Under the pieces are notes generated by a model. It searched no databases and was not told where the DNA came from. It saw only the letters and a program-made list of their open reading frames with translations. A stretch of DNA of 64,000 nucleotides from Eledone cirrhosa. Taxonomy: Eukaryota. Shown piece after piece: positions 1 to 64,000 of this stretch. Numbering within the stretch: the stretch's first letter is position 1; every line of letters starts with the position of its first letter. Where the stretch lies: assembly GCA_964016885.1 (NCBI GenBank), contig OZ024741.1:410688001-410752000 (forward strand), read 5' to 3'. The translations under genes were made by a program, and so were the position numbers.

Positions 1-3000
1 GTGACAGTAGAGTGTATATACTATATCTGTGACAGTAGAGTGTATATACTATATCTGTGACAGTAGAGTGTATATACTATATCTGTGACAGTAGAGTGTA
101 TATACTATATATCTGAGACAGTAGAGTGTATATACTATATCAGTGACAGTAGAGTGTATATACTATATCTGTGACAGTAGAGTGTATATACTATATCTGT
201 GACAGTAGAGTGTATATACTATATATCTGAGACAGTAGAGTGTATATACTATATCTGTGACAGTTGAGTGTATATACTATATCTGTGACAGTAGAGTGTA
301 TATACTATATCTGTGACAGTAGAGTGTATATACTATATATCTGAGACAGTAGAGTGTATATACTATATATCTGAGACAGTAGAGTGTATATACTATATCT
401 GTGACAGTAGAGTGTATATACTATATCTGTGACAGTAGAGTGTATATACTATATCTGTGAGACAGTAGAGTGTATATACTATATCTGTGACAGTAGAGTG
501 TATATACTATATCTGTGACAGTAGAGTGTATATACTATATATCTGTGACAGTAGAGTGTATATACTATATATCTGTGACAGTAGAGTGTATATACTATAT
601 ATCTGAGACAGTAGAGTGTATATACTATATATCTGAGACAGTAGCGTGTATATACTATATCTGTGACAGTAGAGTGTATATACTATATATCTGAGACAGT
701 AGAGTGTATATACTATATCTGTGACAGTAGAGTGTATATACTATATCTGTGACAGTAGAGTGTATATACTATATCTGTGACAGTAGAGTGTATATACTAT
801 ATCTGTGACAGTAGAGTGTATATACTATATATCTGAGACAGTAGAGTGTATATACTATATCTGTGAGAGTAGAGTGTATATACTATATCTGTGACAGTAG
901 AGTGTATATACTATATCTGTGACAGTAGAGTGTATATACTATATCTGTGACAGTAGAGTGTATATACTATATCTGTGAGACAGTAGAGTGTATATACTAT
1001 ATATCTGTGACAGTAGAGTGTATATACTATATCTGAGACAGTAGAGTGTATATACTATATCTGTGTGACAGTAGAGTGTATATACTATATCTGTGAGACA
1101 GTAGAGTGTATATACTATATATCTGTGTCAGTAGAGTGTATATACTATATCTGAGACAGTAGAGTGTATATACTATATCTGAGACAGTAGAGTGTATATA
1201 CTATATCTGTGAGACAGTAGAGTGTATATACTATATATCTGTGTCAGTAGAGTGTATATACTATATCTGAGACAGTAGAGTGTATATACTATATCTGAGA
1301 CAGTAGAGTGTATAAACTATATCTGAGACAGTAGAGTGTATATACTATATCTGTGACAGTAGAGTGTATATACTATATATCTGTGACAGTAGAGTGTATA
1401 TACTATATCTGTGAGACAGTAGAGTGTATATACTATATATCTGTGACAGTAGAGTGTATATACTATATCTGTCACAGTAGAGTGTATATACTATATATCT
1501 GTCACAGTAGAGTGTATATACTATATATCTGTGACAGTAGAGTGCATATACTATATCTGAGACAGTAGAGTGTATAAACTATATCTGAGACAGTAGAGTG
1601 TATATACTATATCTGTGACAGTAGAGTGTATATACTATATATCTGTGACAGTAGAGTGTATATACTATATCTGTGAGACAGTAGAGTGTATATACTATAT
1701 ATCTGTGACAGTAGAGTGTATATACTATATCTGTCACAGTAGAGTGTATATACTATATATCTGTCACAGTAGAGTGTATATACTATATATCTGTGACAGT
1801 AGAGTGTATATACTATATCTGTGAGACAGTAGAGTGTATATACTATATCTGTGACAGTAGAGTGTATATACTATATATCTGTGACAGTAGAGTGTATATA
1901 CTATATCTGTGACAGTAGAGTGTATATACTATATCTGTGACAGTAGAGTGTATATACTATATCTGTGACAGTAGAGTGTATATACTATATATCTGAGACA
2001 GTAGAGTGTATATACTATATCTGTGACAGTAGAGTGTATATACTATATCTGTGACAGTAGAGTGTATATACTATATATCTGAGACAGTAGAGTGTATATA
2101 CTATATCTTTGACAGTAGAGTGTATATACTATATCTGTGACAGTAGAGTGTATATACTATATATCTGAGACAGTAGAGTGTATATACTATATATCTGTGA
2201 CAGTAGAGTGTATCTACTATATCTGTGACAGTAGAGTGTATATACTATATCTGTGACAGTAGACTGTATATACTATATATCTGAGACAGTAGAGTGTATA
2301 TACTATATCTGTGACAGTAGACTGTATATACTATATCTGTGACAGTAGAGTGTATATACTATATCTGTGACAGTAGAGTGTATATACTATATCTTTGACA
2401 GTAGAGTGTATATACTATATATCTGAGACAGTAGAGTGTATATACTATATCTGTGACAGTAGACTGTATATACTATATCTGTGACAGTAGAGTGTATATA
2501 CTATATATCTGAGACAGTAGAGTGTATATACTATATATCTGAGACAGTAGAGTGTATATACTATATCTGTGACAGTAGAGTGTATATACTATATATCTGT
2601 GACAGTAGAGTGTATATACTATATCTGTGACAGTAGAGTGTATATACTATATCTGTGACAGTAGAGTGTATATACTATATCTGTGACAGTAGAGTGTATA
2701 TACTATATATCTGAGACAGTAGAGTGTATATACTATATCTGTGACAGTAGAGTGTATATGCTATATCTGTGACAGTAGAGTGTATATACTATATCTGTGA
2801 CAGTAGAGTGTATATACTATATCTGTGACAGTAGAGTGTATATACTATATCTGTGACAGTAGAGTGTATATACTATACCTGTGACAGTAGAGTGTATATA
2901 CTATATCTGTGACAGTAGAGTATATATACTATATCTGTGACAGTAGAGTGTATATACTATATCTGTGACAGTAGAGTGTATATACTATATATCTGTGACA

Positions 3001-6000
3001 GTAGAGTGTATATACTATATCTGTGACAGTAGAGTGTATATGCTATATCTGTGACAGTAGAGTGTATATACTATATCTGTGAGACATTAGAGTGTATATA
3101 CTATATCTGTGACAGTAGAGTATATATACTATATCTGTGAAGGTAGCGTGTATATACTATATATCTGAGACAGTAGAGTGTATATACTATATCTGTGAGA
3201 CAGTAGAGTGTATATACTATATCTGTGACAGTAGAGTGTATATACTATATCTGTGACAGTAGAGTGTATATGCTATATCTGTGACAGTAGAGTGTATATA
3301 CTATATCTGTGAGACATTAGAGTGTATATACTATATCTGTGACAGTAGAGTATATATACTATATCTGTGAAGGTAGCGTGTATATACTATATATCTGAGA
3401 CAGTAGAGTGTATATGCTATATCTGTGACAGTAGAGTGTATATACTATATCTGTGAGACATTAGAGTGTATATACTATATCTGTGACAGTAGAGTATATA
3501 TACTATATCTGTGAAGGTAGCGTCTATATACTATATATCTGAGACAGTAGAGTGTATATACTATATATCTGTGACAGTAGAGTGTATATACTATATCTGT
3601 GAGACAGTAGAGTGTATATACTATATCTGTGACAGTAGAGTGTATATGCTATATCTGTGACAGTAGAGTGTATATACTATATCTGTGAGACATTAGAGTG
3701 TATATACTATATCTGTGACAGTAGAGTATATATACTATATCTGTGAAGGTAGCGTGTATATACTATATATCTGAGACAGTAGAGTGTATATACTATATAT
3801 CTGTGACAGTAGAGTGTATATACTATATCTGTGACAGTAGAGGGTATATACTATATCTGTGACAGTAGAGTGTATATACTATATCTGTGAGAGTAGAGTG
3901 TATATACTATATCTGTGACAGTAGAGTGTATATACTATATCTGAGACAGTAGAGTGTATATACTATATCTGTGTGACAGTAGAGTGTATATACTATATAT
4001 CTGAGACAGTAGAGTGTATATACTATATCTGTGAGACAGTAGAGTGTATATACTATATCTGTGACAGTAGAGTGTATATACTATATCTGTGTGACAGTAG
4101 AGTGTATATACTATATCTGTGACAGTAGAGTGTATATACTATATCTGTGACAGTAGAGTGTATATACTATATCTGTGACAGTAGAGTGTATATACTATAT
4201 CTGTGACAGTAGAGTGTATATACTATATCTGTGACAGTAGAGTGTATATACTATATCTGTGACAGTAGAGTGTATATACTATATATCTGAGACAGTAGAG
4301 TGTATATACTATATCAGTGACAGTAGAGTGTATATACTATATCTGTGACAGTAGAGTGTATATACTATATCTGTGACAGTAGAGTGTATATACTATATAT
4401 CTGAGACAGTAGAGTGTATATACTATATCTGTGACAGTAGAGTGTATATACTATATCTGTGACAGTAGAGTGTATATACTATATCTGTGACAGTAGAGTG
4501 TATATACTATATATCTGAGACAGTAGAGTGTATATACTATATATGTGAGACAGTAGAGTGTATATACTATATCTGTGACAGTAGAGTGTATATACTATAT
4601 CTGTGACAGTAGAGTGTATATACTATATCTGTGAGACAGTAGAGTGTATATACTATATCTGTGACAGTAGAGTGTATATACTATATCTGTGACAGTAGAG
4701 TGTATATACTATATATCTGTGACAGTAGAGTGTATATACTATATATCTGTGACAGTAGAGTGTATATACTATATATCTGAGACAGTAGAGTGTATATACT
4801 ATATATCTGAGACAGTAGCGTGTATATACTATATCCGTGACAGTAGAGTGTATATACTATATATCTGAGACAGTAGAGTGTATATACTATATCTGTGACA
4901 GTAGAGTGTGTATACTATATCTGTGACAGTAGAGTGTATATACTATATCTGTGACAGTAGAGTGTATATACTATATCTGTGACAGTAGAGTGTATATACT
5001 ATATATCTGAGACAGTAGAGTGTATATACTATATCTGTGAGAGTAGAGTGTATATACTATATCTGTGACAGTAGAGTGTATATACTATATCTGTGACAGT
5101 AGAGTGTATATACTATATCTGTGACAGTAGAGTGTATATACTATATCTGTGAGACAGTAGAGTGTATATACTATATATCTGTGACAGTAGAGTGTATATA
5201 CTATATCTGAGACAGTAGAGTGTATATACTATATCTGTGTGACAGTAGAGTGTATATACTATATCTGTGAGACAGTAGAGTGTATATACTATATATCTGT
5301 GTCAGTAGAGTGTATATACTATATCTGAGACAGTAGAGTGTATATACTATATCTGAGACAGTAGAGTGTATATACTATATCTGTGAGACAGTAGAGTGTA
5401 TATACTATATATCTGTGTCAGTAGAGTGTATATACTATATCTGAGACAGTAGAGTGTACATACTATATCTGAGACAGTAGAGTGTATAAACTATATCTGA
5501 GACAGTAGAGTGTATATACTATATCTGTGACAGTAGAGTGTATATACTATATATCTGTGACAGTAGAGTGTATATACTATATCTGTGAGACAGTAGAGTG
5601 TATATACTATATATCTGTGACAGTAGAGTGTATATACTATATCTGTCACAGTAGAGTGTATATACTATATATCTGTCACAGTAGAGTGTATATACTATAT
5701 ATCTGTGACAGTAGAGTGTATATACTATATCTGAGACAGTAGAGTGTATAAACTATATCTGAGACAGTAGAGTGTATATACTATATCTGTGACAGTAGAG
5801 TGTATATACTATATATCTGTGACAGTAGAGTGTATATACTATATCTGTGAGACAGTAGAGTGTATATACTATATATCTGTGACAGTAGAGTGTATATACT
5901 ATATCTGTCACAGTAGAGTGTATATACTATATATCTGTCACAGTAGAGTGTATATACTATATATCTGTGACAGTAGAGTGTATATACTATATCTGTGAGA

Positions 6001-9000
6001 CAGTAGAGTGCATATACTATATCTGTGACAGTAGAGTGTATATACTATATCTGTGACAGTAGAGTGTATATACTATATCTGTGACAATAGTGTGTATATA
6101 CTATATCTGTGAGACAGTAGAGTGTATATACTATATATCTGAGACAGTAGAGTGTATATACTATATCTGTGACAGTAGAGTGTATATACTATATCTGTGA
6201 CAGTAGAGTGTATATACTATATCTGTGACAGTAGAGTGTATATACTATATATCTGAGACAGTAGAGTGTATATGCTATATCTGTGACAGTAGAGTGTATA
6301 TAATATATCTGTGAGACAGTAGAGTGTATATACTATATATGTGACAGTAGAGTGTATATACTATATATCTGTGACAGTAGAGTGTATATACTATATATCT
6401 GTGACAGTAGAGTGTATATACTATATCTGTGACAGTAGAGTGTATATACTATATCTGTGACAGTAGAGTGTATATACTATATCTGTGACAGTAGAGTGTA
6501 TATACTATATATCTGAGACAGTAGAGTGTATATACTATATCTGTGACAGTAGAGTGTATATACTATATCTGTGACAGTAGAGTGTATATACTATATATCT
6601 GAGACAGTAGAGTGTATATACTATATCTTTGACAGTAGAGTGTATATACTATATCTGTGACAGTAGAGTGTATATACTATATATCTGAGACAGTAGAGTG
6701 TATATACTATATATCTGTGACAGTAGAGTGTATCTACTATATCTGTGACAGTAGAGTGTATATACTATATCTGTGACAGTAGACTGTATATACTATATAT
6801 CTGAGACAGTAGAGTGTATATACTATATCTGTGACAGTAGACTGTATATACTATATCTGTGACAGTAGAGTGTATACACTATATCTGTGACAGTAGAGTG
6901 TATATACTATATCTGTGACAGTAGAGTGTATATACTATATATCTGAGACAGTAGAGTGTATATACTATATCTGTGACAGTAGACTGTATATACTATATCT
7001 GTGACAGTAGAGTGTATATACTATATATCTGAGACAGTAGAGTGTATATACTATATCTTTGACAGTAGAGTGTATATACTATATCTGTGACAGTAGAGTG
7101 TATATACTATATATCTGTGACAGTAGAGTGTATATACTATATATCTGAGACAGTAGAGTGTATATACTATATATCTGAGACAGTAGCGTGTATATACTAT
7201 ATCTGTGACAGTAGAGTATATATACTATATATCTGAGACAGTAGAGTGTATATACTATATCTGTGACAGTAGAGTGTATATACTATATCTGTGACAGTAG
7301 AGTGTATATACTATATCTGTGACAGTAGAGTGTATATACTATATCTGTGACAGTAGAGTGTATATACTATATATCTGAGACAGTAGAGTGTATATACTAT
7401 ATCTGTGAGAGTAGAGTGTATATACTATATCTGTGACAGTAGAGTGTATATACTATATCTGTGACAGTAGAGTGTATATACTATATCTGTGACAGTAGAG
7501 TGTATATACTATATCTGTGAGACAGTAGAGTGTATATACTATATATCTGTGACAGTAGAGTGTATATACTATATCTGAGACAGTAGAGTGTATATACTAT
7601 ATCTGTGTGACAGTAGAGTGTATATACTATATCTGTGAGACAGTAGAGTGTATATACTATATATCTGTGTCAGTAGAGTGTATATACTATATCTGAGACA
7701 GTAGAGTGTATATACTATATCTGAGACAGTAGAGTGTATATACTATATCTGTGAGACAGTAGAGTGTATATACTATATATCTGTGTCAGTAGAGTGTATA
7801 TACTATATCTGAGACAGTAGAGTGTACATACTATATCTGAGACAGTAGAGTGTATAAACTATATCTGAGACAGTAGAGTGTATATACTATATCTGTGACA
7901 GTAGAGTGTATATACTATATATCTGTGACAGTAGAGTGTATATACTATATCTGTGAGACAGTAGAGTGTATATACTATATATCTGTGACAGTAGAGTGTA
8001 TATACTATATCTGTCACAGTAGAGTGTATATACTATATATCTGTCACAGTAGAGTGTATATACTATATATCTGTGACAGTAGAGTGTATATACTATATCT
8101 GAGACAGTAGAGTGTATAAACTATATCTGAGACAGTAGAGTGTATATACTATATCTGTGACAGTAGAGTGTATATACTATATATCTGAGACAGTAGAGTG
8201 TATATACTATATATCTGTGACAGTAGAGTGTATATACTATATCTGTGACAGTAGAGTGTATATACTATATCTGTGACAGTAGAGTGTATATACTATATCT
8301 GTGAGACAGTAGAGTGTATATACTATATATCTGTGACAGTAGAGTGTATATACTATATCTGTCACAGTAGAGTGTATATACTATATATCTGTCACAGTAG
8401 AGTGTATATACTATATATCTGTGACAGTAGAGTGTATATACTATATCTGTGAGACAGTAGAGTGCATATACTATATCTGTGACAGTAGAGTGTATATACT
8501 ATATCTGTGACAGTAGAGTGTATATACTATATCTGTGACAATAGTGTGTATATACTATATCTGTGAGACAGTAGAGTGTATATACTATATATCTGAGACA
8601 GTAGAGTGTATATACTATATCTGTGACAGTAGAGTGTATATACTATATCTGTGACAGTAGAGTGTATATACTATATCTGTGACAGTAGAGTGTATATACT
8701 ATATATCTGAGACAGTAGAGTGTATATGCTATATCTGTGACAGTAGAGTGTATATAATATATCTGTGAGACAGTAGAGTGTATATACTATATATGTGACA
8801 GTAGAGTGTATATACTATATATCTGTGACAGTAGAGTGTATATACTATATATCTGTGACAGTAGAGTGTATATACTATATCTGTGACAGTAGAGTGTATA
8901 TACTATATCTGTGACAGTAGAGTGTATATACTATATCTGTGACAGTAGAGTGTATATACTATATATCTGAGACAGTAGAGTGTATATACTATATCTGTGA

Positions 9001-12000
9001 CAGTAGAGTGTATATACTATATCTGTGACAGTAGAGTGTATATACTATATATCTGAGACAGTAGAGTGTATATACTATATCTTTGACAGTAGAGTGTATA
9101 TACTATATCTGTGACAGTAGAGTGTATATACTATATATCTGAGACAGTAGAGTGTATATACTATATATCTGTGACAGTAGAGTGTATCTACTATATCTGT
9201 GACAGTAGAGTGTATATACTATATCTGTGACAGTAGACTGTATATACTATATATCTGAGACAGTAGAGTGTATATACTATATCTGTGACAGTAGACTGTA
9301 TATACTATATCTGTGACAGTAGAGTGTATATACTATATCTGTGACATTAGAGTGTATATACTATATCTGTGACAGTAGAGTGTATATACTATATATCTGA
9401 GACAGTAGAGTGTATATACTATATCTGTGACAGTAGACTGTATATACTATATCTGTGACAGTAGAGTGTATATACTATATATCTGAGACAGTAGAGTGTA
9501 TATACTATATATCTGAGACAGTAGAGTGTATATACTATATCTGTGACAGTAGAGTGTATATACTATATATCTGTGACAGTAGAGTGTATATACTATATCT
9601 GTGACAGTAGAGTGTATATACTATATCTGTGACAGTAGAGTGTATATACTATATCTGTGACAGTAGAGTGTATATACTATATATCTGAGACAGTAGAGTG
9701 TATATACTATATCTGTGACAGTAGAGTGTATATGCTATATCTGTGACAGTAGAGTGTATATACTATATCTGTGACAGTAGAGTGTATATACTATATCTGT
9801 GACAGTAGAGTGTATATACTATACCTGTGACAGTAGAGTGTATATACTATATCTGTGACAGTAGAGTATATATACTATATCTGTGACAGTAGAGTGTATA
9901 TACTATATCTGTGACAGTAGAGTGTATATACTATATATCTGTGACAGTAGAGTGTATATACTATATCTGTGACAGTAGAGTGTATATACTATATATCTGA
10001 GACAGTAGAGTGTATATACTATATCTGTGACAGTAGAGTGTATATGCTATATCTGTGTCAGTAGAGTGTATATACTATATCTGTGACAGTAGAGTGTATA
10101 TACTATATCTGTGACAGTAGAGTGTATATACTATACCTGTGACAGTAGAGTGTACATACTATATCTGTGACAGTAGAGTATATATACTATATCTGTGACA
10201 GTAGAGTGTATATACTATATCTGTGACAGTAGAGTGTATATACTATATATCTGTGACAGTAGAGTGTATATACTATATCTGTGACAGTAGAGTGTATATG
10301 CTATATCTGTGACAGTAGAGTGTATATACTATATCTGTGAGACATTAGAGTGTATATACTATATCTGTGACAGTAGAGTATATATACTATATCTGTGAAG
10401 GTAGCGTGTATATACTATATATCTGAGACAGTAGAGTGTATATACTATATCTGTGAGACAGTAGAGTGTATATACTATATCTGTGACAGTAGAGTGTATA
10501 TACTATATCTGTGACAGTAGAGTGTATATGCTATATCTGTGACAGTAGAGTGTATATACTATATCTGTGAGACATTAGAGTGTATATACTATATCTGTGA
10601 CAGTAGAGTATATATACTATATCTGTGAAGGTAGCGTGTAGATACTATATATCTGAGACAGTAGAGTGTATATACTATATATCTGTGACAGTAGAGTGTA
10701 TATACTATATCTGTTAGACAGTAGAGTGTATATACTATATCTGTGACAGTAGAGTGTATATACTATATCTGTGACAGTAGAGTGTATATGCTATATCTGT
10801 GACAGTAGAGTGTATATACTATATCTGTGAGACATTAGAGTGTATATACTATATCTGTGACAGTAGAGTATATATACTATATCTGTGAAGGTAGCGTGTA
10901 TATACTATATATCTGAGACAGTAGAGTGTATATACTATATATCTGTGACAGTAGAGTGTATATACTATATCTGTGACAGTAGAGGGTATATACTATATCT
11001 GTGACAGTAGAGTGTATATACTATATCTGTGAGAGTAGAGTGTATATACTATATCTGTGACAGTAGAGTGTATATACTATATCTGTGACAGTAGAGTGTA
11101 TATACTATATCTGTGACAGTAGAGTGTATATACTATATCTGTGACAGTAGAGTGTATATACTATATATCTGAGACAGTAGAGTGTATATACTATATCTGT
11201 GACAGTAGAGTGTATATGCTATATCTGTGACAGTAGAGTGTATATACTATATCTGTGACAGTAGAGTGTATATACTATATCTGTGACAGTAGAGTGTATA
11301 TACTATACCTGTGACAGTAGAGTGTATATACTATATCTGTGACAGTAGAGTATATATACTATATCTGTGACAGTAGAGTGTATATACTATATCTGTGACA
11401 GTAGAGTGTATATACTATATATCTGTGACAGTAGAGTGTATATACTATATCTGTGACAGTAGAGTGTATATACTATATATCTGAGACAGTAGAGTGTATA
11501 TACTATATCTGTGACAGTAGAGTGTATATGCTATATCTGTGACAGTAGAGTGTATATACTATATCTGTGACAGTAGAGTGTATATACTATATCTGTGACA
11601 GTAGAGTGTATATACTATACCTGTGACAGTAGAGTGTATATACTATATCTGTGACAGTAGAGTATATATACTATATCTGTGACAGTAGAGTGTATATACT
11701 ATATCTGTGACAGTAGAGTGTATATACTATATATCTGTGACAGTAGAGTGTATATACTATATCTGTGACAGTAGAGTGTATATGCTATATCTGTGACAGT
11801 AGAGTGTATATACTATATCTGTGAGACATTAGAGTGTATATACTATATCTGTGACAGTAGAGTATATATACTATATCTGTGAAGGTAGCGTGTATATACT
11901 ATATATCTGAGACAGTAGAGTGTATATACTATATCTGTGAGACAGTAGAGTGTATATACTATATCTGTGACAGTAGAGTGTATATACTATATCTGTGACA

Positions 12001-15000
12001 GTAGAGTGTATATGCTATATCTGTGACAGTAGAGTGTATATACTATATCTGTGAGACATTAGAGTGTATATACTATATCTGTGACAGTAGAGTATATATA
12101 CTATATCTGTGAAGGTAGCGTGTAGATACTATATATCTGAGACAGTAGAGTGTATATACTATATATCTGTGACAGTAGAGTGTATATACTATATCTGTTA
12201 GACAGTAGAGTGTATATACTATATCTGTGACAGTAGAGTGTATATACTATATCTGTGACAGTAGAGTGTATATGCTATATCTGTGACAGTAGAGTGTATA
12301 TACTATATCTGTGAGACATTAGAGTGTATATACTATATCTGTGACAGTAGAGTATATATACTATATCTGTGAAGGTAGCGTGTATATACTATATATCTGA
12401 GACAGTAGAGTGTATATACTATATATCTGTGACAGTAGAGTGTATATACTATATCTGTGACAGTAGAGGGTATATACTATATCTGTGACAGTAGAGTGTA
12501 TATACTATATCTGTGAGAGTAGAGTGTATATACTATATCTGTGACAGTAGAGTGTATATACTATATCTGAGACAGTAGAGTTTATATACTATATCTGTGT
12601 GACAGTAGAGTGTATATACTATATATCTGAGACAGTAGAGTGTATATACTATATCTGTGAGACAGTAGAGTGTATATACTATATCTGTGACAGTAGAGTG
12701 TATATACTATATCTGTGTGACAGTAGAGTGTATATACTATATCTGTGACAGTAGAGTGTATATACTATATCTGTGACAGTAGAGTGTATATACTATATCT
12801 GTGACAGTAGAGTGTATATACTATATCTGTGACAGTAGAGTGTATATACTATATCTGTGACAGTAGAGTGTATATACTATATCTGTGTCAGTAGAGTGTA
12901 TATACTATATATCTGAGACAGTAGAGTGTATATACTATATCAGTGACAGTAGAGTGTATATACTATATCTGTGACAGTAGAGTGTATATACTATATCTGT
13001 GACAGTAGAGTGTATATACTATATATCTGAGACAGTAGAGTGTATATACTATATCTGTGACAGTAGAGTGTATATACTATATCTGTGACAGTAGAGTGTA
13101 TATACTATATCTGTGACAGTAGAGTGTATATACTATATATCTGTGACAGTAGAGTGTATATACTATATCTGTGAGACAGTAGAGTGTATATACTATATCT
13201 GTGACAGTAGAGTGTATATACTATATCTGTGACAGTAGAGTGTATATAATATATCTGTGACAATAGTGTGTATATACTATATCTGTGAGACAGTAGAGTG
13301 TATATACTATATCTGTGACAGTGGAGTGTATATACTATATCTGTGACAGTAGAGTGTATATACTATATATCTGAGACAGTAGAGTGTATATACTATATCT
13401 GTGACAGTAGAGTGTATATACTATATCTGTGACAGTAGAGTGTATATACTATATATCTGAGACAGTAGAGTGTATATGCTATATCTGTGACAGTAGAGTG
13501 TATATACTATATCTGTGAGACAGTAGAGTGTATATACTATATCTGTGACAGTAGAGTGTATATACTATATATCTGAGACTCTGTGACAGTAGAGTGTATA
13601 TACTATATATCTGTGACAGTAGAGTGTATATACTATATCTGTGACAGTAGAGTGTATATACTATATATCTGTGACAGTAGAGTGTATATACTATATCTGT
13701 GACAGTAGAGTGTATATACTATATCTGAGACAGTAGAGTGTATATACTATATCTGTGTGACAGTAGAGTGTATATACTATATCTGTGACAGTAGAGTGTA
13801 TATACTATATCTGAGACAGTAGAGTGTATATACTATATCTGAGACAGTAGAGTGTATATACTATATCTGTGTGACAGTAGAGTGTATATACTATATCTGT
13901 GACAGTAGAGTGTATATACTATATCTGAGACAGTAGAGTGTATATACTATATCTGAGTCAGTAGAGTGTATATACTATATCTGTGACAGTAGAGTGCATA
14001 TACTATATATCTGTGACAGTAGAGTGTATATACTATATCTGTGAGACAGTAGAGTGTATATACTATATATCTGTGACAGTAGAGTGTATATACTATATCT
14101 GTGACAGTAGAGTGTATATACTATATCTGTGACAGTAGAGTGTATACACTATATCTGAGACAGTAGAGTGTATATACTATATCTGTGTGACAGTAGAGTG
14201 TATATACTATATCTGTGAGACATTAGAGTGTATATACTATATCTGTGACAGTAGAGTATATATACTATATCTGTGAAGGTAGCGTGTATATACTATATAT
14301 CTGAGACAGTAGAGTGTATATACTATATATCTGTGACAGTAGAGTGTATATACTATATCTGTGAGACAGTAGAGTGTATATACTATATCTGTGACAGTAG
14401 AGTGTATATACTATATCTGTGACAGTAGAGTGTATATGCTATATCTGTGACAGTAGAGTGTATATACTATATCTGTGAGACATTAGAGTGTATATACTAT
14501 ATCTGTGACAGTAGAGTATATATACTATATCTGTGAAGGTAGCGTGTATATACTATATATCTGAGACAGTAGAGTGTATATACTATATATCTGTGACAGT
14601 AGAGTGTATATACTATATCTGTGACAGTAGAGGGTATATACTATATCTGTGACAGTAGAGTGTATATACTATATCTGTGAGAGTAGAGTGTATATACTAT
14701 ATCTGTGACAGTAGAGTGTATATACTATATCTGAGACAGTAGAGTGTATATACTATATCTGTGTGACAGTAGAGTGTATATACTATATATCTGAGACAGT
14801 AGAGTGTATATACTATATCTGTGAGACAGTAGAGTGTATATACTATATCTGTGACAGTAGAGTGTATATACTATATATGTGTGACAGTAGAGTGTATATA
14901 CTATATCTGTGACAGTAGAGTGTATATACTATATCTGTGACAGTAGAGTGTATATACTATATCTGTGACAGTAGAGTGTATATACTATATCTGTGACAGT

Positions 15001-46019: not shown

Positions 46020-46110
46020 TACCTAGAATCAGGTCTAACATCAAAGATAGAATAGAAGGGTTGAAGTTTGATCAGAACATTTCCAATGACAAAAGCAGTG
46101 AAGTATTTAC

Positions 46111-46202
46111 CTGTATTTTCCAGTGCACACCTGAACTCCCCTTAAACCAGCAGCCTGAGCTCCACCAATATCATTGACAATATCATCTCCTATCATCACA
46201 AC
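46111..46202 (-). CDS. LHPP: Single internal coding exon (92 nt, phase 0 to 2) of a HAD-IIA phosphatase, most like LHPP (phospholysine phosphohistidine inorganic pyrophosphate phosphatase)
   Basis: Minus strand: ...ATTATTTTGTGTTTAG|GTTGTGATG...AAATACAG|GTAAAT. It translates to VVMIGDDIVNDIGGAQAAGLRGVQVCTGKY(R), containing HAD motif IV GDxxxxD and TGK. As I recall the sequences, it is closer to LHPP (AVMIGDDIVGDVGGAQRCGMRALQVRTGKFR) than to HDHD2 (MIGDDCRDDVGGAQ), and matches the length and phase of the penultimate LHPP exon. Confidence 0.88.
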
Positions 46203-46236: not shown

Positions 46237-46468
46237 AAAGCACCCAGTACACACTGTAAAGTGGTTGTGTCGGAGTCATGACAAAAAGCACCTAGTACAC
46301 TCTGTAAATATGGTTGGTGTTAGGAAGGACATCCAGATGTAGAAACCCAGCCAGAAGCAGTTCTGTATGAGCAAGAAACGGTCACATGACCCGACTTGCC
46401 TCTAATGGGACAACCCGTCGAACCCATGCTAGCATGGAAAATGGACGTTAAACAGTGATGATGATGAT
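46237..46468 (+). mobile_element. 5'-truncated RTE 3' end, or RTE-mobilised SINE tail
   Basis: Colinear with the reverse complement of 41847-~42070: CTGTAAA..TGGTTGGTGTTAGGAAGG.CATCCA..TGTAGAAA, GAGCAAGA, CTTGCCTC, AACCCATGCTAGCATGGAA, GGACGTTAAAC and a (TGA)n tail. Confidence 0.85.
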
Positions 46469-50300: not shown

Positions 50301-53300
50301 ACCTATTGAAAACCAGATATACACAGGGATACAGTGTACCTATTGTAAACCAGATATACACAGGGATACAGTGTACCTATTGTAAACCAGATATACACAG
50401 GGATACAGTGTACCTATTGTAAACTAGATATACACTGGGATACAGTGTACCTATTGTAAACCAGATATACACAGGGATACAGTGTACCTATTATAAACCA
50501 GATATACACAGGGATAGAGTGTACCTATTGTAAACCAGATATACACAGGGATACAGTGTACCTATTATAAACCAGATATACACTGGGATACAGTGTACCT
50601 ATTGTAAACCTGATATACACAGGGATACAGTGAACCTATTGTAAACCAGATACACACTGGGATACAGTGTACCTATTGTAAAACAGATATACACAGGGAT
50701 ACAGTGTACCTAATGTAAACCTGATATACAGGGATACAGTGTACCTATTGTAAACCAGATATATACAGGGATACAGTGTACCTATTGTAAACCAGATACA
50801 CACAGGGATAGTGTACCTATTGTAAACTAGATACACAGGGATACAGTGTACCTATTGTAAACCAGATATACACTGGGATACAGTGTACTTATTGTAAACC
50901 AGATACACGACAGGGATACAGTGTACCTGTTGTAAACCAGATATACACAGGGATACAGTGTACCTATTGTAAACCAGATATACACAGGGATACAGTGTAC
51001 CTATTGTAAACCAGATATACCCAGGGATACAGTGTACCTATTGTAAACCTTACATACACAGGGATACAGTGAACCTATTGTAAACCAGATACACACTGGG
51101 ATACAGTGTACCTATTGTAAAACAGATATACAAAGGGATAGTGTACCTATTATAAACTAGATATAGACTGGGATACAGTGTACCTATTGTTAACCAGATA
51201 CACAGGGATACAGTGTACCTATTGTAAACCCGATATACACTGGGATACAGTGTACCTGCTCTAAATCAGGTACACAGGGATACAGTGTACCTATTGAAAA
51301 CCAGATACACACAGCGATACAGTGTACCTATTGTAAACCTTACATACACAAGGATACAGTGTACCTATTGTAAACCTGATATACCACAGGGATACAGTGT
51401 ACCTATTGTAAACCTTACATACACAGGGATACAGTGTACCTATTGTAAACCAGCTATACACAGGGATACAGTGTACTTATTGTAAACCTGATATACACAG
51501 GGATACAGTGTACCTATTGTAAACCAGATATACACAGGGATACAGTGTACCTATTGAAAACCAGATATACACAGGGATACAGTGTACCTATTGTAAACCA
51601 GATATACACAGGGATACAGTGTACCTATTGTAAACCAGATATACACAGGGATACAGTGTACCTATTGTAAACTAGATATACACTGGGATACAGTGTACCT
51701 ATTGTAAACCAGATATACACAGGGATACAGTGTACCTATTATAAACCAGATATACACAGGGATACAGTGTACCTATTGTAAACCAGATATACACAGGGAT
51801 ACAGTGTACCTATTATAAACCAGATATACACTGGGATACAGTGTACCTATTGTAAACCTGATATACACAGGGATACAGTGTACCTATTGTAAACTAGATA
51901 TACACTGGGATACAGTGTACTTATTGTAAACCAGATACACCACAGGGATACAGTGTACCTATTGAAAACAAGATATACACAGGGATACAGTGTACCTATT
52001 GTAAACCAGATATACACAGGGATACAGTGTACCTATTATAAACCAGATATACACTGGGATACAGTGTACCTATTGTAAACCTGATATACACAGGGATACA
52101 GTGTACCTATTGTAAACTAGATATACACTGGGATACAGTGTACTTATTGTAAACCAGATACACCACAGGGATACAGTGTACCTATTGAAAACCAGATATA
52201 CACAGGGATACAGTGTACCTATTGTAAACCAGATATACACAGGGATACAGTGTACCTATTGTAAACCAGATATACACAGGGATACAGTGTACCTATTGTA
52301 AACTAGATATACACTGGGATACAGTGTACCTATTGTAAACCAGATATACACTGGGATACAGTGTACCTATTGTAAACCAGATACACAGGGATACAGTGTA
52401 CCTATTGTAAACCAGATATACCCAGGGATAGTGTACCTATTATAAACCAGATATACACAGGGATACAGTGTACCTATCGTAAACCAGATACACAGGGATA
52501 TGGTGTACCTAGTGTAAACCAGATATACACAGGGATATAGTGTACCTATTGTAAACCAGATATATACAGGGATACAGTGTACCTATTGTAAACCAGATAT
52601 ACACAGGGATACAGTGTACCTAATGTAAACCTGATATACAGGGATACAGTGTACCTATTGTAAACCAGACATACACAGGGATACAGTGTACCTATTGTAA
52701 ACCAGATATACCACAGGGATACAGTGTACCTATTGTAAACCTTACATACACAGGGATACAGTGTACCTATTGTAAACCAGCTATACACAGGGATACAGTG
52801 TACCTATTGTAAACCAGATATACACAGGGATACAGTGTACTTATTGTAAACCTGATATACACAGGGATACAGTGTACCTATTGTAAACCAGATATACACA
52901 GGGATACAGTGTACCTATTGAAAACCAGATATACACAGGGATACAGTGTACCTATTGTAAACCAGATATACACAGGGATACAGTGTACCTATTGTAAACC
53001 AGATATACACAGGGATACAGTGTACCTATTGTAAACTAGATATACACTGGGATACAGTGTACCTATTGTAAACCAGATATACACAGGGATACAGTGTACC
53101 TATTATAAACCAGATATACACAGGGATAGAGTGTACCTATTGTAAACCAGATATACACAGGGATAGAGTGTACCTATTATAAACCAGATATACACTGGGA
53201 TACAGTGTACCTATTGTAAACCTGATATACACAGGGATACAGTGTACCTATTGTAAACTAGATATACACTGGGATACAGTGTACTTATTGTAAACCAGAT

Positions 53301-56300
53301 ACACCACAGGGATACAGTGTACCTATTGAAAACAAGATATACACAGGGATACAGTGTACCTATTGTAAACCAGATATACACAGGGATACAGTGTACCTAT
53401 TATAAACCAGATATACACTGGGATACAGTGTACCTATTGTAAACCTGATATACACAGGGATACAGTGTACCTATTGTAAACTAGATATACACTGGGATAC
53501 AGTGTACCTATTGTAAACCAGATATACCCAGGGATACAGTGTACCTATTGTAAACCTTACATACACAGGGATACAATGAACCTATTGTAAACCAGATACA
53601 CACTGGGATACAGTGTACCTATTGTAAAACAGATATACAAAGGGATAGTGTACCTATTATAAACTAGATATGGACTGGGATACAGTGTACCTATTGTTAA
53701 CCAGATACACAGGGATACAGTGTACCTATTGTAAACCTGATATACACTGGGATACAGTGTACCTGCTCTAAATCAGGTACACAGGGATACAGTGTACCTA
53801 TTGTAAACCAGATACACACAGGGATACAGTGTACCTATTGTAAACCTTACATACACAGGGATACAGTGTACCTATTGTAAACCTGATATACCACAGGGAT
53901 ACAGTGTACCTATTGTAAACCTTACATACACAGGGATACAGTGTACCTATTGTAAACCAGCTATACACAGGGATACAGTGTACCTATTGTAAACCAGATA
54001 CACAGGGATACAGTGTACCTATTGTAAACCAGATATACACAGGGATACAGTGTACCTATTGTAAACCAGATATACACTGAGATACAGTGTACCTATTGTA
54101 AACCTGATATACACAGTGATACAGTGTACCTATTGTAAACCAGATACACAGGGATACAGTGTACCTATTGTAAACCAGATATACACAGGGATACAGTGTA
54201 CCTATTGTAAACCAGATATACACTGGGATACAGTGTACCTATTGTAAACCAGATACACACAGGGATACAGTGTACCTATTGTAAACCTGATATACACTGG
54301 GATACAGTGTACCTCTTGTAAACCAGATATACACAGGGATACAGTGTACCTATTGTAAACCTGATATACACAGGGATACAGTGTACCTATTGTAAACCAG
54401 ATACGCAGGGATACAGTGTACCTATTGTAAACCAGATATACCCAGGGATACAGTGTACCTATTGTAAACCAGATATACACAGGGATACAGTGTACCTATT
54501 GTAAACCAGATATACACAGGGATACAGTGTACCTATTGTAAACCAGATATACCCAGGGATACAGTGTACCTATTATAAACCAGATATACACAGGGATACA
54601 GTGTACCTATTATAAACCAGATATACAAAGGGATAGTGTACCTATTATAAACTAGATATAGACTGGGATACAGTGTACCTATTGTAAACCAGATACACAG
54701 GGATACAGTGTACCTATTGTAAACCTGATATACACTGGGATACAGTGTACCTACTCTAAACCAGATATACACAGGGATACAGTGTACCTATTGTAAACTA
54801 GATATACACTGGGATACAGTGTACCTATTGTAAACCAGATATACACTGGGATACAGTGTACCTATTGTAAACCAGATACACAGGGATACAGTGTACCTAT
54901 TGTAAACCAGATATACACAGGGATACAGTGTACCTATTGTAAACTAGATATACACTGGGATACAGTGTACCTATTGTAAACCAGATATACACAGGGATAC
55001 AGTGTACCTATTATAAACCAGATATACACAGGGATACAGTGTACCTATTGTAAACCAGATATACACAGGGATACAGTGTACCTATTATAAACCAGATATA
55101 CACTGGGATACAGTGTACCTATTGTAAACCTGATATACACAGGGATACAGTGTACCTATTGTAAACTAGATATACACTGGGATACAGTGTACTTATTGTA
55201 AACCAGATACACCACAGGGATACAGTGTACCTATTGAAAACAAGATATACACAGGGATACAGTGTACCTATTGTAAACCAGATATACACAGGGATACAGT
55301 GTACCTATTATAAACCAGATATACACTGGGATACAGTGTACCTATTGTAAACCTGATATACACAGGGATACAGTGTACCTATTGTAAACTAGATATACAC
55401 TGGGATACAGTGTACTTATTGTAAACCAGATACACCACAGGGATACAGTGTACCTATTGAAAACCAGATATACACAGGGATACAGTGTACCTATTGTAAA
55501 CCAGATATACACAGGGATACAGTGTACCTATTGTAAACCAGATATACACAGGGATACAGTGTACCTATTGTAAACTAGATATACACTGGGATACAGTGTA
55601 CCTATTGTAAACCAGATATACACTGGGATACAGTGTACCTATTGTAAACCAGATACACAGGGATACAGTGTACCTATTGTAAACCAGATATACCCAGGGA
55701 TAGTGTACCTATTATAAACCAGATATACACAGGGATACAGTGTACCTATCGTAAACCAGATACACAGGGATATGGTGTACCTAGTGTAAACCAGATATAC
55801 ACAGGGATATAGTGTACCTATTGTAAACCAGATATATACAGGGATACAGTGTACCTATTGTAAACCAGATATACACAGGGATACAGTGTACCTAATGTAA
55901 ACCTGATATACAGGGATACAGTGTACCTATTGTAAACCAGACATACACAGGGATACAGTGTACCTATTGTAAACCAGATATACCACAGGGATACAGTGTA
56001 CCTATTGTAAACCTTACATACACAGGGATACAGTGTACCTATTGTAAACCAGCTATACACAGGGATACAGTGTACCTATTGTAAACCAGATATACACAGG
56101 GATACAGTGTACTTATTGTAAACCTGATATACACAGGGATACAGTGTACCTATTGTAAACCAGATATACACAGGGATACAGTGTACCTATTGAAAACCAG
56201 ATATACACAGGGATACAGTGTACCTATTGTAAACCAGATATACACAGGGATACAGTGTACCTATTGTAAACCAGATATACACAGGGATACAGTGTACCTA

Positions 56301-59300
56301 TTGTAAACTAGATATACACTGGGATACAGTGTACCTATTGTAAACCAGATATACACAGGGATACAGTGTACCTATTATAAACCAGATATACACAGGGATA
56401 GAGTGTACCTATTGTAAACCAGATATACACAGGGATAGAGTGTACCTATTATAAACCAGATATACACTGGGATACAGTGTACCTATTGTAAACCTGATAT
56501 ACACAGGGATACAGTGTACCTATTGTAAACTAGATATACACTGGGATACAGTGTACTTATTGTAAACCAGATACACCACAGGGATACAGTGTACCTATTG
56601 AAAACAAGATATACACAGGGATACAGTGTACCTATTGTAAACCAGATATACACAGGGATACAGTGTACCTATTATAAACCAGATATACACTGGGATACAG
56701 TGTACCTATTGTAAACCTGATATACACAGGGATACAGTGTACCTATTGTAAACTAGATATACACTGGGATACAGTGTACCTATTGTAAACCAGATATACC
56801 CAGGGATACAGTGTACCTATTGTAAACCTTACATACACAGGGATACAGTGAACCTATTGTAAACCAGATACACACTGGGATACAGTGTACCTATTGTAAA
56901 ACAGATATACAAAGGGATAGTGTACCTATTATAAACTAGATATGGACTGGGATACAGTGTACCTATTGTTAACCAGATACACAGGGATACAGTGTACCTA
57001 TTGTAAACCTGATATACACTGGGATACAGTGTACCTGCTCTAAATCAGGTACACAGGGATACAGTGTACCTATTGTAAACCAGATACACACAGGGATACA
57101 GTGTACCTATTGTAAACCTTACATACACAGGGATACAGTGTACCTATTGTAAACCTGATATACCACAGGGATACAGTGTACCTATTGTAAACCTTACATA
57201 CACAGGGATACAGTGTACCTATTGTAAACCAGCTATACACAGGGATACAGTGTACCTATTGTAAACCAGATACACAGGGATACAGTGTACCTATTGTAAA
57301 CCAGATATACACAGGGATACAGTGTACCTATTGTAAACCAGATATACACTGAGATACAGTGTACCTATTGTAAACCTGATATACACAGTGATACAGTGTA
57401 CCTATTGTAAACCAGATACACAGGGATACAGTGTACCTATTGTAAACCAGATATACACAGGGATACAGTGTACCTATTGTAAACCAGATATACACTGGGA
57501 TACAGTGTACCTATTGTAAACCAGATACACACAGGGATACAGTGTACCTATTGTAAACCTGATATACACTGGGATACAGTGTACCTCTTGTAAACCAGAT
57601 ATACACAGGGATACAGTGTACCTATTGTAAACCTGATATACACAGGGATACAGTGTACCTATTGTAAACCAGATACGCAGGGATACAGTGTACCTATTGT
57701 AAACCAGATATACCCAGGGATACAGTGTACCTATTGTAAACCAGATATACACAGGGATACAGTGTACCTATTGTAAACCAGATATACACAGGGATACAGT
57801 GTACCTATTGTAAACCAGATATACCCAGGGATACAGTGTACCTATTATAAACCAGATATACACAGGGATACAGTGTACCTATTATAAACCAGATATACAA
57901 AGGGATAGTGTACCTATTATAAACTAGATATAGACTGGGATACAGTGTACCTATTGTAAACCAGATACACAGGGATACAGTGTACCTATTGTAAACCTGA
58001 TATACACTGGGATACAGTGTACCTACTCTAAACCAGATATACACAGGGATACAGTGTACCTATTGTAAACTAGATATACACTGGGATACAGTGTACCTAT
58101 TGTAAACCAGATATACACTGGGATACAGTGTACCTATTGTAAACCAGATACACAGGGATACAGTGTACCTATTGTAAACCAGATATACCCAGGGATAGTG
58201 TACCTATTATAAACCAGATATACACAGGGATACAGTGTACCTATCGTAAACCAGATACACAGGGATATGGTGTACCTAGTGTAAACCAGATATACACAGG
58301 GATATAGTGTACCTATTGTAAACCAGATATATACAGGGATACAGTGTACCTATTGTAAACCAGATATACACAGGGATACAGTGTACCTAATGTAAACCTG
58401 ATATACAGGGATACAGTGTACCTATTGTAAACCAGATATATACAGGGATACAGTGTACCTATTGTAAACCAGATACACACAGGGATAGTGTACCTATTGT
58501 AAACTAGATACACAGGGATACAGTGTACCTATTGTAAACCAGATATACACTGGGATACAGTGTACCTATTGTAAACCAGATATACCCAGGGATACAGTGA
58601 ACCTATTGTAAACCAGATACACACTGGGATACAGTGTACCTATTGTAAAACAGATATACAAAGGGATAGTGTACCTATTATAAACTAGATATAGACTGGG
58701 ATACAGTGTACCTATTGTTAACCAGATACACAGGGATAGAGTGTACCTATTGTAAACCTGATATACACTGGGATACAGTGTACCTGCTCTAAATCAGGTA
58801 TACAGGGATACAGTGTACCTATTGTAAACCAGATACACACAGTGATACAGTGTACCTATTCTAAACCTTACATACACAGGGATACAGTGTACCTATTGTA
58901 AACCTGATATACCACAGGGATACAGTGTACCTATTGTAAACCTTACATACACAGGGATACAGTGTACCTATTGTAAACCAGCTATACACAGGGATACAGT
59001 GTACCTATTGTAAACCAGATACACAGGGTTACAGTGTACCTATTGTAAACCAGATAAACACAGGGATGCAGTGTACCTATTGTAAACCAGATATACACAG
59101 GGATACAGTGTACCTATTGTAAACCAGATATACACAGGGATACAGTGTACTTATTGTAAACCTGATATACACAGGGATACAGTGTACCTATTGTAAACCA
59201 GATATAAACAGGGATACAGTGTACCTATTGAAAACAAGATATACACAGGGATACAGTGTACCTATTGTAAACCAGATATACACAGGGATACAGTGTACCT

Positions 59301-62300
59301 ATTGTAAACCAGATATACACAGGGATACAGTGTACCTATTGTAAACTAGATATACACTGGGATACAGTGTACCTATTGTAAACCAAATATACACAGGGAT
59401 ACAGTGTACCTATTATAAACCAGATATACACAGGGATACAGTGTACCTATTGTAAACCAGATATACACAGGGATACAGTGTACCTATTATAAACCAGATA
59501 TACACTGGGATACAGTGTACCTATTGTAAACCTGATATACAGGGATACAGTGTACCTATTGTAAACCAGATATATACAGGGATACAGTGTACCTATTGTA
59601 AACCAGATACACACAGGGATAGTGTACTTATTGTAAACTAGATACACAGGGAAACAGTGTACCTATTATTAACCAGATATACACTGGGATACAGTGTACC
59701 TATTGTAAACCAGATATACACAGGGATAGTGTACCTAGTGTAAACCAGATATACACAGGGATACAGTGTACCTATTGTAAACCAGATATACACTGGGATA
59801 CAGTGTACCTATTGTAAACCAGATATACCCAGGGATACAGTGTACCTATTGTAAACGAGATATACACTGAGATACAGTGTACCTATTGTAAACCTGATAT
59901 ACACAGTGATACAGTGTACCTATTGTAAACCAGATACACAGGGATACAGTGTACCTATTGTAAACCAGATATACACAGGGATACAGTGTACCTATTGTAA
60001 ACCAGATATACACTGGGATACAGTGTACCTATTGTAAACCAGATACACACAGGGATACAGTGTACCTATTGTAAACCTGATATACACTGGGATACAGTGT
60101 ACCTCTTGTAAACCAGATATACACAGGGATACAGTGTACCTATTGTAAACCTGATATACACAGGGATACAGTGTACCTATTGTAAACCAGATACGCAGGG
60201 ATACAGTGTACCTATTGTAAACCAGATATACCCAGGGATACAGTGTACCTATTGTAAACCAGATATACACAGGGATACAGTGTACCTATTGTAAACCAGA
60301 TATACACAGGGATACAGTGTACCTATTGTAAACCAGATATACCCAGGGATACAGTGTACCTATTATAAACCAGATATACACAGGGATACAGTGTACCTAT
60401 TATAAACCAGATATACAAAGGGATAGTGTACCTATTATAAACTAGATATAGACTGGGATACAGTGTACCTATTGTAAACCAGATACACAGGGATACAGTG
60501 TACCTATTGTAAACCTGATATACACTGGGATACAGTGTACCTACTCTAAACCAGATATACACAGGGATACAGTGTACCTATTGTAAACTAGATATACACT
60601 GGGATACAGTGTACCTATTGTAAACCAGATATACACTGGGATACAGTGTACCTATTGTAAACCAGATACACAGGGATACAGTGTACCTATTGTAAACCAG
60701 ATATACCCAGGGATAGTGCACCTATTATAAACCAGATATACACAGGGATACAGTGTACCTATCGTAAACCAGATACACAGGGATATGGTGTACCTAGTGT
60801 AAACCAGATATACACAGGGATATAGTGTACCTATTGTAAACCAGATATATACAGGGATACAGTGTACCTATTGTAAACCAGATATACACAGGGATACAGT
60901 GTACCTAATGTAAACCTGATATACAGGGATACAGTGTACCTATTGTAAACCAGATATATACAGGGATACAGTGTACCTATTGTAAACCAGATACACACAG
61001 GGATAGTGTACCTATTGTAAACTAGATACACAGGGATACAGTGTACCTATTGTAAACCAGATATACACTGGGATACAGTGTACCTATTGTAAACCAGATA
61101 TACCCAGGGATACAGTGAACCTATTGTAAACCAGATACACACTGGGATACAGTGTACCTATTGTAAAACAGATATACAAAGGGATAGTGTACCTATTATA
61201 AACTAGATATAGACTGGGATACAGTGTACCTATTGTTAACCAGATACACAGGGATAGAGTGTACCTATTGTAAACCTGATATACACTGGGATACAGTGTA
61301 CCTGCTCTAAATCAGGTACACAGGGATACAGTGTACCTATTGTAAACCAGATACACACAGTGATACAGTGTACCTATTCTAAACCTTACATACACAGGGA
61401 TACAGTGTACCTATTGTAAACCTGATATACCACAGGGATACAGTGTACCTATTGTAAACCTTACATACACAGGGATACAGTGTACCTATTGTAAACCAGC
61501 TATACACAGGGATACAGTGTACCTATTGTAAACCAGATACACAGGGTTACAGTGTACCTATTGTAAACCAGATAAACACAGGGATGCAGTGTACCTATTG
61601 TAAACCAGATACACACAGGGATACAGTGTACCTATTGTAAACCAGATATACACAGGGATACAGTGTACTTATTGTAAACCTGATATACACAGGGATACAG
61701 TGTACCTATTGTAAACCAGATATAAACAGGGATACATTGTACCTATTGAAAACAAGATATACACAGGGATACAGTGTACCTATTGTAAACCAGATATACA
61801 CAGGGATACAGTGTACCTATTGTAAACCAGATATACACAGGGATACAGTGTACCTATTGTAAACTAGATATACACTGGGATACAGTGTACCTATTGTAAA
61901 CCAAATATACACAGGGATACAGTGTACCTATTATAAACCAGATATACACAGGGATACAGTGTACCTATTGTAAACCAGATATACACAGGGATACAGTGTA
62001 CCTATTATAAACCAGATATACACTGGGATACAGTGTACCTATTGTAAACCTGATATACAGGGATACAGTGTACCTATTGTAAACCAGATATATACAGGGA
62101 TACAGTGTACCTATTGTAAACCAGATACACACAGGGATAGTGTACTTATTGTAAACTAGATACACAGGGATACAGTGTACCTATTATTAACCAGATATAC
62201 ACTGGGATACAGTGTACCTATTGTAAACCAGATACACAGGGTTACAGTGTACCTATTGTAAACCAGATAAACACAGGGATGCAGTGTACCTATTGTAAAC

Positions 62301-64000
62301 CAGATATACACAGGGATACAGTGTACCTATTGTAAACCAGATATACACAGGGATACAGTGTACTTATTGTAAACCTGATATACACAGGGATACAGTGTAC
62401 CTATTGTAAACCAGATATAAACAGGGATACATTGTACCTATTGAAAACAAGATATACACAGGGATACAGTGTACCTATTGTAAACCAGATATACACAGGG
62501 ATACAGTGTACCTATTGTAAACCAGATATACACAGGGATAGTGTACCTAGTGTAAACCAGATATACACAGGGATACAGTGTACCTATTGTAAACCAGATA
62601 CACGACAGGGATACAGTGTACCTGTTGTAAACCAGATATACACAGGGATACAGTGTACCTATTGTAAACCAGATATACACAGGGATACAGTGTACCTATT
62701 GTAAACCAGATATACCCAGGGATACAGTGTACCTATTGTAAACCTTACATACACAGGGATACAGTGAACCTATTGTAAACCAGATACACACTGGGATACA
62801 GTGTACCTATTGTAAAACAGATATACAAAGGGATAGTGTACCTATTATAAACTAGATATAGACTGGGATACAGTGTACCTATTGTAAACCAGATACACAG
62901 GGATACAGTGTACCTATTGTAAACCTGATATACACTGGGATACAGTGTACCTACTCTAAACCAGGTACACAGGGATACAGTGTACCTATTGTAAACCAGA
63001 TACACACAGGGATACAGTGTACCTATTGTAAACCAGATATACACAGGGATACAGTGTACCTATTGTAAACCTGATATACACTGGGATACAGTGTACCTGC
63101 TCTAAATCAGGTACACAGGGATACAGTGTACCTATTGTAAACCAGATATACCCAGGGATACAGTGTACCTATTGTAAACCAGATATACACAGGGATACAG
63201 TGTACCTATTGTAAACCAGATATACACAGGGATACAGTGTACCTATTGTAAACCAGATATACCCAGGGATACAGTGTACCTATTATAAACCAGATATACA
63301 CAGGGATACAGTGTACCTATTATAAACCAGATATACAAAGGGATAGTGTACCTATTATAAACTAGATATAGACTGGGATACAGTGTACCTATTGTAAACC
63401 AGATACACAGGGATACAGTGTACCTATTGTAAACCTGATATACACTGGGATACAGTGTACCTACTCTAAACCAGGTACACAGGGATACAGTGTACCTATT
63501 GTAAACCAGATACACACAGGGATACAGTGTACCTATTGTAAACCAGATATACACAGGGATACAGTGTACCTATTGTAGACCTGATATACCACAGGGATAC
63601 AGTGTACCTATTGTAAACCTTACATACACAGGGATACAGTGTACCTATTGTAAACCAGCTATACACAGGGATACAGTGTACCTATTGTAAACCAGATACA
63701 CACAGGGATGCAGTGTACCTATTGTAAACCAGATATACACAGGGATGCAGTGTACCTATTGTAAACCAGATATACACAGGGATACAGTGTACCTATTGTA
63801 AACCAGATACACACAGGGATGCAGTGTACCTATTGTAAACCAGATACACACAGGGATACAGTGTACCTATTGTAAACCAGATATACACAGGGATACAGTG
63901 TACCTATTGTAAACCAGATACACACAGGGATGCAGTGTACCTATTGTAAACCAGATACACACAGGGATACAGTGTACCTATTGTAAACCAGATATACACA
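47343..64000. repeat. Satellite B: tandem array of a 37-bp monomer CACAGGGATACAGTGTACCTATTGTAAACCAGATATA with 35- and 38-bp variants; runs off the right edge
   Basis: Continuous head-to-tail monomers with a 37-bp period (e.g. 47351 to 47388) and recurrent variants CACTGGG, TATTATAA, AACTAGAT, AACCTGAT and CCTTACAT. Confidence 0.99.

Follow-up and report, generated by a model that had tools for sequence, protein, structure and literature searches.

The window analyzed here comprises 64,000 nucleotides of the Eledone cirrhosa genome (OZ024741.1:410688001-410752000; this contig accounts for 416.3 Mb of the 2,996-Mb genome and is called C2 hereafter). Between two long satellite arrays, it holds a single short exon, which is exon 6 of a gene for LHPP (phospholysine phosphohistidine inorganic pyrophosphate phosphatase). 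The exon is bounded by an acceptor ending in TTTAG and by the donor GTAAAT. Its translation matches TIGR01458 (E=3e-12) and residues 211-240 of human LHPP (2x4d; E=4.1e-8), values that place the match far above chance, while HDHD2 matched more weakly (E=1.1e-5; 27.8 bits vs. 35.1 bits for LHPP). The original prediction, made from the letters alone, had described a clean 92-nt exon with canonical ends and HAD motif IV, and the splice sites and both protein matches bear out this description. Exon 6 has a single match in the whole genome. A tblastn search of Octopus LHPP against 264 kb around the gene returned only one match within the window, exon 6 itself, which agrees with the earlier claim that the island between the arrays contains no further LHPP exon. 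The remaining six exons lie on both sides of exon 6, in order and on the minus strand, an arrangement that had been proposed as a check.

Exon 6 thus belongs to an intact seven-exon LHPP gene (Table 1). Four upstream exons were found by a genome family search, and exons 4 and 7 by reading of the flanks. Introns 1 to 6 measure 2,966, 817, 8,959, 775, 33,883, and 121,940 nt; all six are of the GT-AG type, and their phases are consistent. The gene spans 170,162 bases with a coding sequence of 822 nt, equivalent to 273 residues and a single terminal stop. The human LHPP gene likewise comprises seven exons, the last of its introns being close to 100 kb. With three Octopus LHPP sequences the encoded protein shares 78.4% identity, and with that of Argonauta 76.9%; exon 6 keeps 29 of 31 and exon 7 keeps 23 of 29 residues of Octopus LHPP. 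Exon 7 matches residues 242-268 of human LHPP (2x4d) and matches LHPP alone, not HDHD2, and the sole match of exon 2 is a named LHPP. In the motif numbering that we assume for LHPP, the HAD motif I aspartate (LLD-I-T/S-G) lies in exon 1, aligned with Octopus and mammalian LHPP, motif II in exon 2 as C-S-N-E (T in other LHPPs), motif III (GKP) in exon 5, and motif IV (GDDxxxD) in exon 6, followed by the C-terminal strand and helix in exon 7. The product is therefore a full-length orthologue of the LHPP subfamily with all four motifs (HAD subfamily IIA, TIGR01458; human 2x4d; Octopus bimaculoides XP_014779237.1). Nothing about it is unusual compared to known LHPP, and it would be predicted to be a phosphohistidine/pyrophosphate phosphatase. 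In a tree of 18 proteins, 17 of them chosen from search hits and with HDHD2 left out, it groups with Octopus and Argonauta within the octopods (support 100/99), and its terminal branch of 0.16 vs. 0.15 for Argonauta shows no lengthening.

The original prediction had also raised the alternative of an orphan duplicated exon, the LHPP gene proper lying elsewhere. This idea was suggested by the isolation of the exon within the 64-kb window and by nothing else; it is refuted by the single genome match and by the six other exons flanking it in order, and we give it practically no credence. Among 10 scored genome candidates, no second LHPP copy was found. Two other family hits were considered as LHPP and rejected, as they read as HDHD3-like and PGP-like; one aligns to LHPP over 44 residues at 41%, the other not at all.

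Table 1. Features of the LHPP locus and genes read in the distal part of contig C2.
Feature	Position in window	Position on contig	Strand	Remarks
LHPP exon 1		C2:410782241-410782102	minus	family search/gene model
LHPP exon 2		C2:410779135-410778948	minus	family search/gene model
LHPP exon 3		C2:410778130-410777977	minus	family search/gene model
LHPP exon 4		C2:410769017-410768954	minus	reading of flanks
LHPP exon 5		C2:410768178-410768086	minus	family search/gene model
LHPP exon 6	46111..46202	C2:410734202-410734111	minus	gene model; 92 nt, phase 0 to phase 2, HAD motif IV
LHPP exon 7		C2:410612170-410612080	minus	reading of flanks
Satellite A, 28/30-bp unit	1..41818	C2:410614588-410729818	one orientation	LHPP intron 6; whole array 115,231 bases
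Satellite B, 37-bp unit	47343..64000	C2:410735343-410767099	one orientation	LHPP intron 5; whole array 31,757 bases
LINE, near full-length	41848..45437		minus	domains: endonuclease, reverse transcriptase, PHD finger; a single stop in frame; same sense as LHPP
40-bp minisatellite	45514..45994			12 copies; intron 6
Candidate decoy terminal exon	45992..46034		minus	acceptor 76 nt past exon-6 donor
High-copy short interspersed repeat pieces	46237..46468			intron 5; very high summed depth, loose ends
Uncharacterised gene matching Argonauta GAB1603882.1		C2:411431938-411607531		Argonauta protein of 1,525 aa, no Pfam family; gene 0.7 Mb from LHPP
Deltex-type RING gene		C2:409441601-409495598	plus	domain matches
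Heparanase gene		C2:409528150-409594191	minus	exon matches

The two large introns consist almost entirely of tandem satellite, called within the window with Tandem Repeats Finder. Satellite A makes up 94.5% of intron 6 and satellite B 93.7% of intron 5, so that 146,988 of the 170,162 bases of the LHPP span (86%) are satellite. An upstream intron of more than 17 kb with satellite B and a downstream intron of more than 46 kb with a long interspersed element (LINE) and satellite A had been predicted, with arrays of more than 16 and 41 kb. All four bounds held and were considerably exceeded, since both arrays continue well outside the window, and the central claim of a conserved enzyme gene with giant satellite-filled introns is upheld by the intact frame and by introns 5 and 6 being about 94% satellite. 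Among the matches listed for satellite A (40 candidates scored), all those above 90% lie in intron 6, and relatives on contig C10 and at C2:279 Mb reach about 80-81% or less. Satellite B is also found as 1-3-kb arrays near 411.47-411.51 Mb. Short seeds with a similar type of unit are scattered across the LHPP gene and the region. Within the arrays, exact duplications extend to 5,219 bases in satellite A and 2,834 bases in satellite B, which suggests that the arrays grew by block duplication, in part recently.

Exact internal repeats of 2.5-5.2 kb, and the observation of no array-spanning read, could raise the suspicion that array lengths or junctions are artefacts of the assembly. The 264 kb around the gene contain no N, however, and exons 5, 6, and 7 lie in correct order and phase across both arrays. 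Furthermore, 97.7% and 100% of the 4-kb words in the two arrays are unique, and long reads can resolve them. Contigs from three short-read runs reproduce exon 6 with its flanks, exon 7, and the end of the island beside satellite B without differences. These runs behave as genomic DNA and stem from one sample, and they may be the assembly's own data. Overall, an artefact appears very improbable. Parts of the intron before exon 7 had no short-read cover at 95% likeness, which proves nothing. At window position 46816, one contig per run carries a 10-base insertion relative to the assembly, possibly the other haplotype.

Intron 6 additionally contains a near full-length LINE, which we take to be of the RTE type, with its 3′ tail directed into satellite A; its sense strand carries A(A/T)TAAA hexamers at five places. 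RTE-BovB LINEs are expanded in octopuses (PMC8967140). A miniature inverted-repeat element had been proposed beside satellite A; this piece appears to be the 3′ untranslated region of the LINE instead, because a second copy 115 kb away holds the end of the open reading frame and the tail in one piece. That second copy is 5′-truncated and inverted, and it sits at the far edge of satellite A inside an edge unit with a 6-bp duplication, which indicates that it was inserted after the array began. The two inverted LINE 3′ ends (window 41848-42493 and C2:410613811-410614588) face each other across satellite A. Their identity amounts to 95% across 555 nt and 90% across 230 nt; they could form a pair within the pre-mRNA, or they could favor an inversion of the array.

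On the sense strand, AATAAA is absent from both arrays, ATTAAA occurs three times in satellite B, and GTRAG is absent from satellite A. Satellite B carries 800 YAGGTR sites in sense vs. 22 in antisense orientation. From this bias, and from the fact that the facing pair comprises the only two LINE 3′ ends more than 90% identical in 264 kb, one might conceive a dedicated handling of the introns, in which satellite B is removed stepwise, as in recursive (ratchet) splicing, at the AG/GT motif present in most of its units, and in which pairing of the inverted LINE ends makes the 115 kb of satellite A loop out. We consider such handling improbable. At least 60 YAGGTR sites per 10 kb on one strand were also counted in 5 of 14 other sampled arrays; the donor of the satellite B unit matches only 5 of 9 consensus letters (6 once joined to exon 5) vs. 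6-8 in the real LHPP donors, and its acceptor is weak. As to the looping, the truncated LINE arrived when the array already existed, and insertions would be expected to survive chiefly at array edges. The AG/GT motif and the missing poly(A) hexamers were likewise rejected as signs of selection, since both recur in other arrays.

Evenly spaced 10-kb samples were scored for a tandem repeat content of at least 90%. This threshold was reached by 7 of 20 samples in the last 20 Mb of C2, by 1 of 20 in the rest of C2, and by 2 of 19 on other contigs. The comparison of 7/20 distal with 3/39 elsewhere is post hoc (Fisher p=0.023), and one of the seven is an array flanking LHPP. All 14 further 10-kb probes within approximately 200 kb on both sides of LHPP were 90-100% tandem array. 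Searching for neighboring exons in single 10-kb samples yielded transposon frames only. Two distal regions of 210 kb each, picked for their mixed samples and hence non-random, were read, and they proved 45% and 60% periodic, with three genes found (Table 1).

The first of these genes matches Argonauta GAB1603882.1 in 16 colinear pieces; in two places, consecutive parts of the protein are separated by 33,638 bases (97% periodic) and by 41,192 bases (96% periodic). It was identified only via a full HMMER scan: its exon at C2:411431941 gave no match in the word-based search, Pfam, or PDB, and another exon gave none in the Atlas or PDB. Two introns predicted for this gene did not stand, as an exon was found inside the supposed 38.9-kb intron, leaving 33.6 kb, and an upstream intron of 11.3 kb was not confirmed. 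GAB1603882.1 and the Argonauta LHPP both lie on one contig of 30,661,994 bases, which suggests an old linkage. In the Deltex-type gene, about 53.5 kb separate domain positions 2-39 from 41-110, with 34% periodic sequence and an array of 13.2 kb. The heparanase gene has a 52.6-kb intron, 46% periodic, with an array of 17.9 kb; the exon after this intron had no PDB match and was placed less firmly by phase, position, and presumed likeness. A gap of 200 N (C2:409427764-409427963) lies outside the introns of both genes.

Five family searches supplied six control genes. The largest gap was 1.5-2.9 kb in four of them, and the other two reached 9.0 and 30.6 kb. In the last of these, which has two 30-kb introns, 5 of 6 10-kb pieces were without a long tandem array, and the remaining piece held 7 kb of AT-rich array. 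Citrate synthase, intended as a further control, had no match in the family search. Since distal samples are rich in satellite and the six controls lack comparable introns, the layout is regional and not genome-wide. It belongs to a satellite-dense distal domain, in which LHPP intron 6 is the largest case seen. The notion of LHPP as an exceptional gene is weakened accordingly, as neighbors in this domain also have array-laden introns. With regards to the chromosomes, contigs C1-C4 measure 379-443 Mb vs. 35-135 Mb for the next contigs, and Octopus LHPP lies on contigs of 61-85 Mb; large chromosome fusions behind C1-C4 are possible.

Judging from sequence, we consider it probable that the arrays of the intact LHPP gene grew in place from minisatellite seeds, and that the gene is read through and spliced by ordinary exon definition. 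Short seeds scattered in the introns would amplify locally, presumably by repeated block duplication through unequal exchange or slippage. The resulting arrays may be tolerated with a sense strand free of AATAAA and almost free of strong donor sites, so that LHPP would still be transcribed through them and its exons recognised in the ordinary way. One anecdote is consistent with a filtering by sequence: a 48-bp unit with ATTAAA is present in about 13 sense copies in intron 6, and in opposite orientation its family forms a very large array just beyond the gene end. The filtering by sequence is a weak step of this mechanism, because 7 of 14 sampled arrays have no poly(A) hexamers on either strand and their absence is not special.

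The latter point already weighs against the reading of an expressed LHPP with tolerated arrays, and several others do so as well. The candidate decoy exon shortly after exon 6 would add 13 codons in frame before a stop, and its acceptor has 15 pyrimidines in 20 positions vs. 10-14 in six real acceptors. Together with this acceptor, the five poly(A)-like hexamers of the LINE, which runs in sense, could make transcripts stop short of satellite A, and an annotated Octopus vulgaris isoform terminates at the end of exon 6. Moreover, should the arrays be young, an unbroken frame says little about whether the gene is expressed at present. The array lengths derive from one assembly, and the contig depth at exon 7 (3.8 and 4.9) is a quarter to a half of that at exon 6 (14.4 and 8.8), although such depth is not a copy number.

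Several of these observations would fit a situation in which full-length LHPP mRNA is no longer made, be it that transcripts end early at the decoy acceptor or the LINE poly(A) signals, or that satellites silenced the gene so recently that its exons are undecayed. Silencing is compatible with the array-filled surroundings in all 14 nearby probes, and the multi-kilobase exact duplications suggest young arrays. However, exon 7 has kept not only its conserved residues but also its acceptor, its stop, and two AATAAA downstream, which speaks against an early end. Likewise, the LHPP branch is not lengthened, no other LHPP copy was found among the scored candidates, and the neighboring gene of like layout also has colinear conserved exons. 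We therefore regard the loss of the full-length mRNA as unlikely.

A wider reading would extend the expression of LHPP through its arrays to the whole distal domain. Here, many ordinary genes in the last 20 Mb would each have private satellite introns of 30-120 kb with transcription in somatic cells, and which satellites can grow inside genes would be decided by a sequence filter (no poly(A) signal on the sense strand) or by a dedicated route (stepwise AG/GT splicing in the satellite and inverted-LINE loop-out). We put this forward tentatively and with considerable doubt. If true, the distal domain would parallel, in somatic cells, the Y-loop programme of Drosophila.

The 48-bp repeat with ATTAAA flanks exon 7 and the gene's 3′ end in opposite orientations (C2:410613187-410613797 and C2:410588001-410611180). 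A 49-bp repeat with 10 copies directly follows the stop codon and shares its repeat family with a large array near 410.42 Mb. Upstream of LHPP, a 48-bp array (C2:410788346-410852000) contains at least two switches in orientation, near 410799740 and 410826283. Intron 3 holds a LINE-like retrotransposon with long open frames (C2:410770490-410775840), with a 72-bp minisatellite on both sides.

Giant introns full of satellite are known above all from Y-linked, testis-only genes of flies, for which special factors are needed. Conserved, apparently ordinary genes with 30-120-kb arrays of a single family offer a test of default transcription and splicing across satellite in somatic cells, and of the limits on which repeats expand within genes. 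In addition, such genes would likely be cut short in annotations that use the usual maximum-intron settings or that start from short-read assemblies, and where an octopod gene model seems to have lost terminal exons, suspicion is therefore in order. In the openly accessible literature, as judged by titles and the beginnings of abstracts and with subscription papers mostly outside this scope, no report of satellite-filled cephalopod introns or of the LHPP locus was found.

In Octopus minor, the mean intron is 5.4 kb and simple repeats make up 14.7% of the genome (PMC6279123). Both species share a large genome and enlarged introns, and LHPP intron 6 is about 23 times the O. minor mean; single-family arrays filling introns are not described in the available main text portions of that account, supplementary repeat tables aside. 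Satellites of Octopus bimaculoides are relatively methylated (PMC9476566), and for euchromatic satellite arrays of Drosophila only small ones are reported (PMC7919458).

The original prediction had drawn the analogy to the Y-linked fertility genes of Drosophila. In kl-3 and kl-5, megabases of simple satellite account for more than 99% of the locus (PMC6508621), and the genes are expressed in spermatogenesis only and need dedicated RNA-binding proteins (PMC6508621, PMC11207136). The analogy stands for introns that are nearly all tandem satellite and for the non-coding share, as more than 99% of the LHPP locus is non-coding by the measure applied there (822 of 170,162 bases coding; PMC6508621). 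It does not stand for size and repeat type: the largest LHPP intron is 121,940 nt and not megabases, its satellites have units of 28-37 bp instead of simple repeats, and satellite reaches 86% vs. more than 99%. Unlike the fertility genes, LHPP is also a metabolic gene. By analogy, it resembles satellite intron gigantism on a smaller scale and would not count as a member of the Y-loop class.

A likeness in setting is offered by bird dot chromosomes, which are enriched in housekeeping genes and in which more than 70% of intron sequence is tandem repeat (10.1101/2025.10.17.683159). As in the distal domain of C2, the introns of ordinary genes there are mostly minisatellite. In the birds, the common units come in multiples of 10-11 bp and lie on very small, GC-rich chromosomes (10.1101/2025.10.17.683159), whereas here each intron has a private family of 12-48 bp in one array of 13-115 kb, at the end of a 416-Mb contig. 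LHPP in E. cirrhosa is a conserved enzyme of the ordinary kind, and the architecture of its gene, though unusual, is regional.

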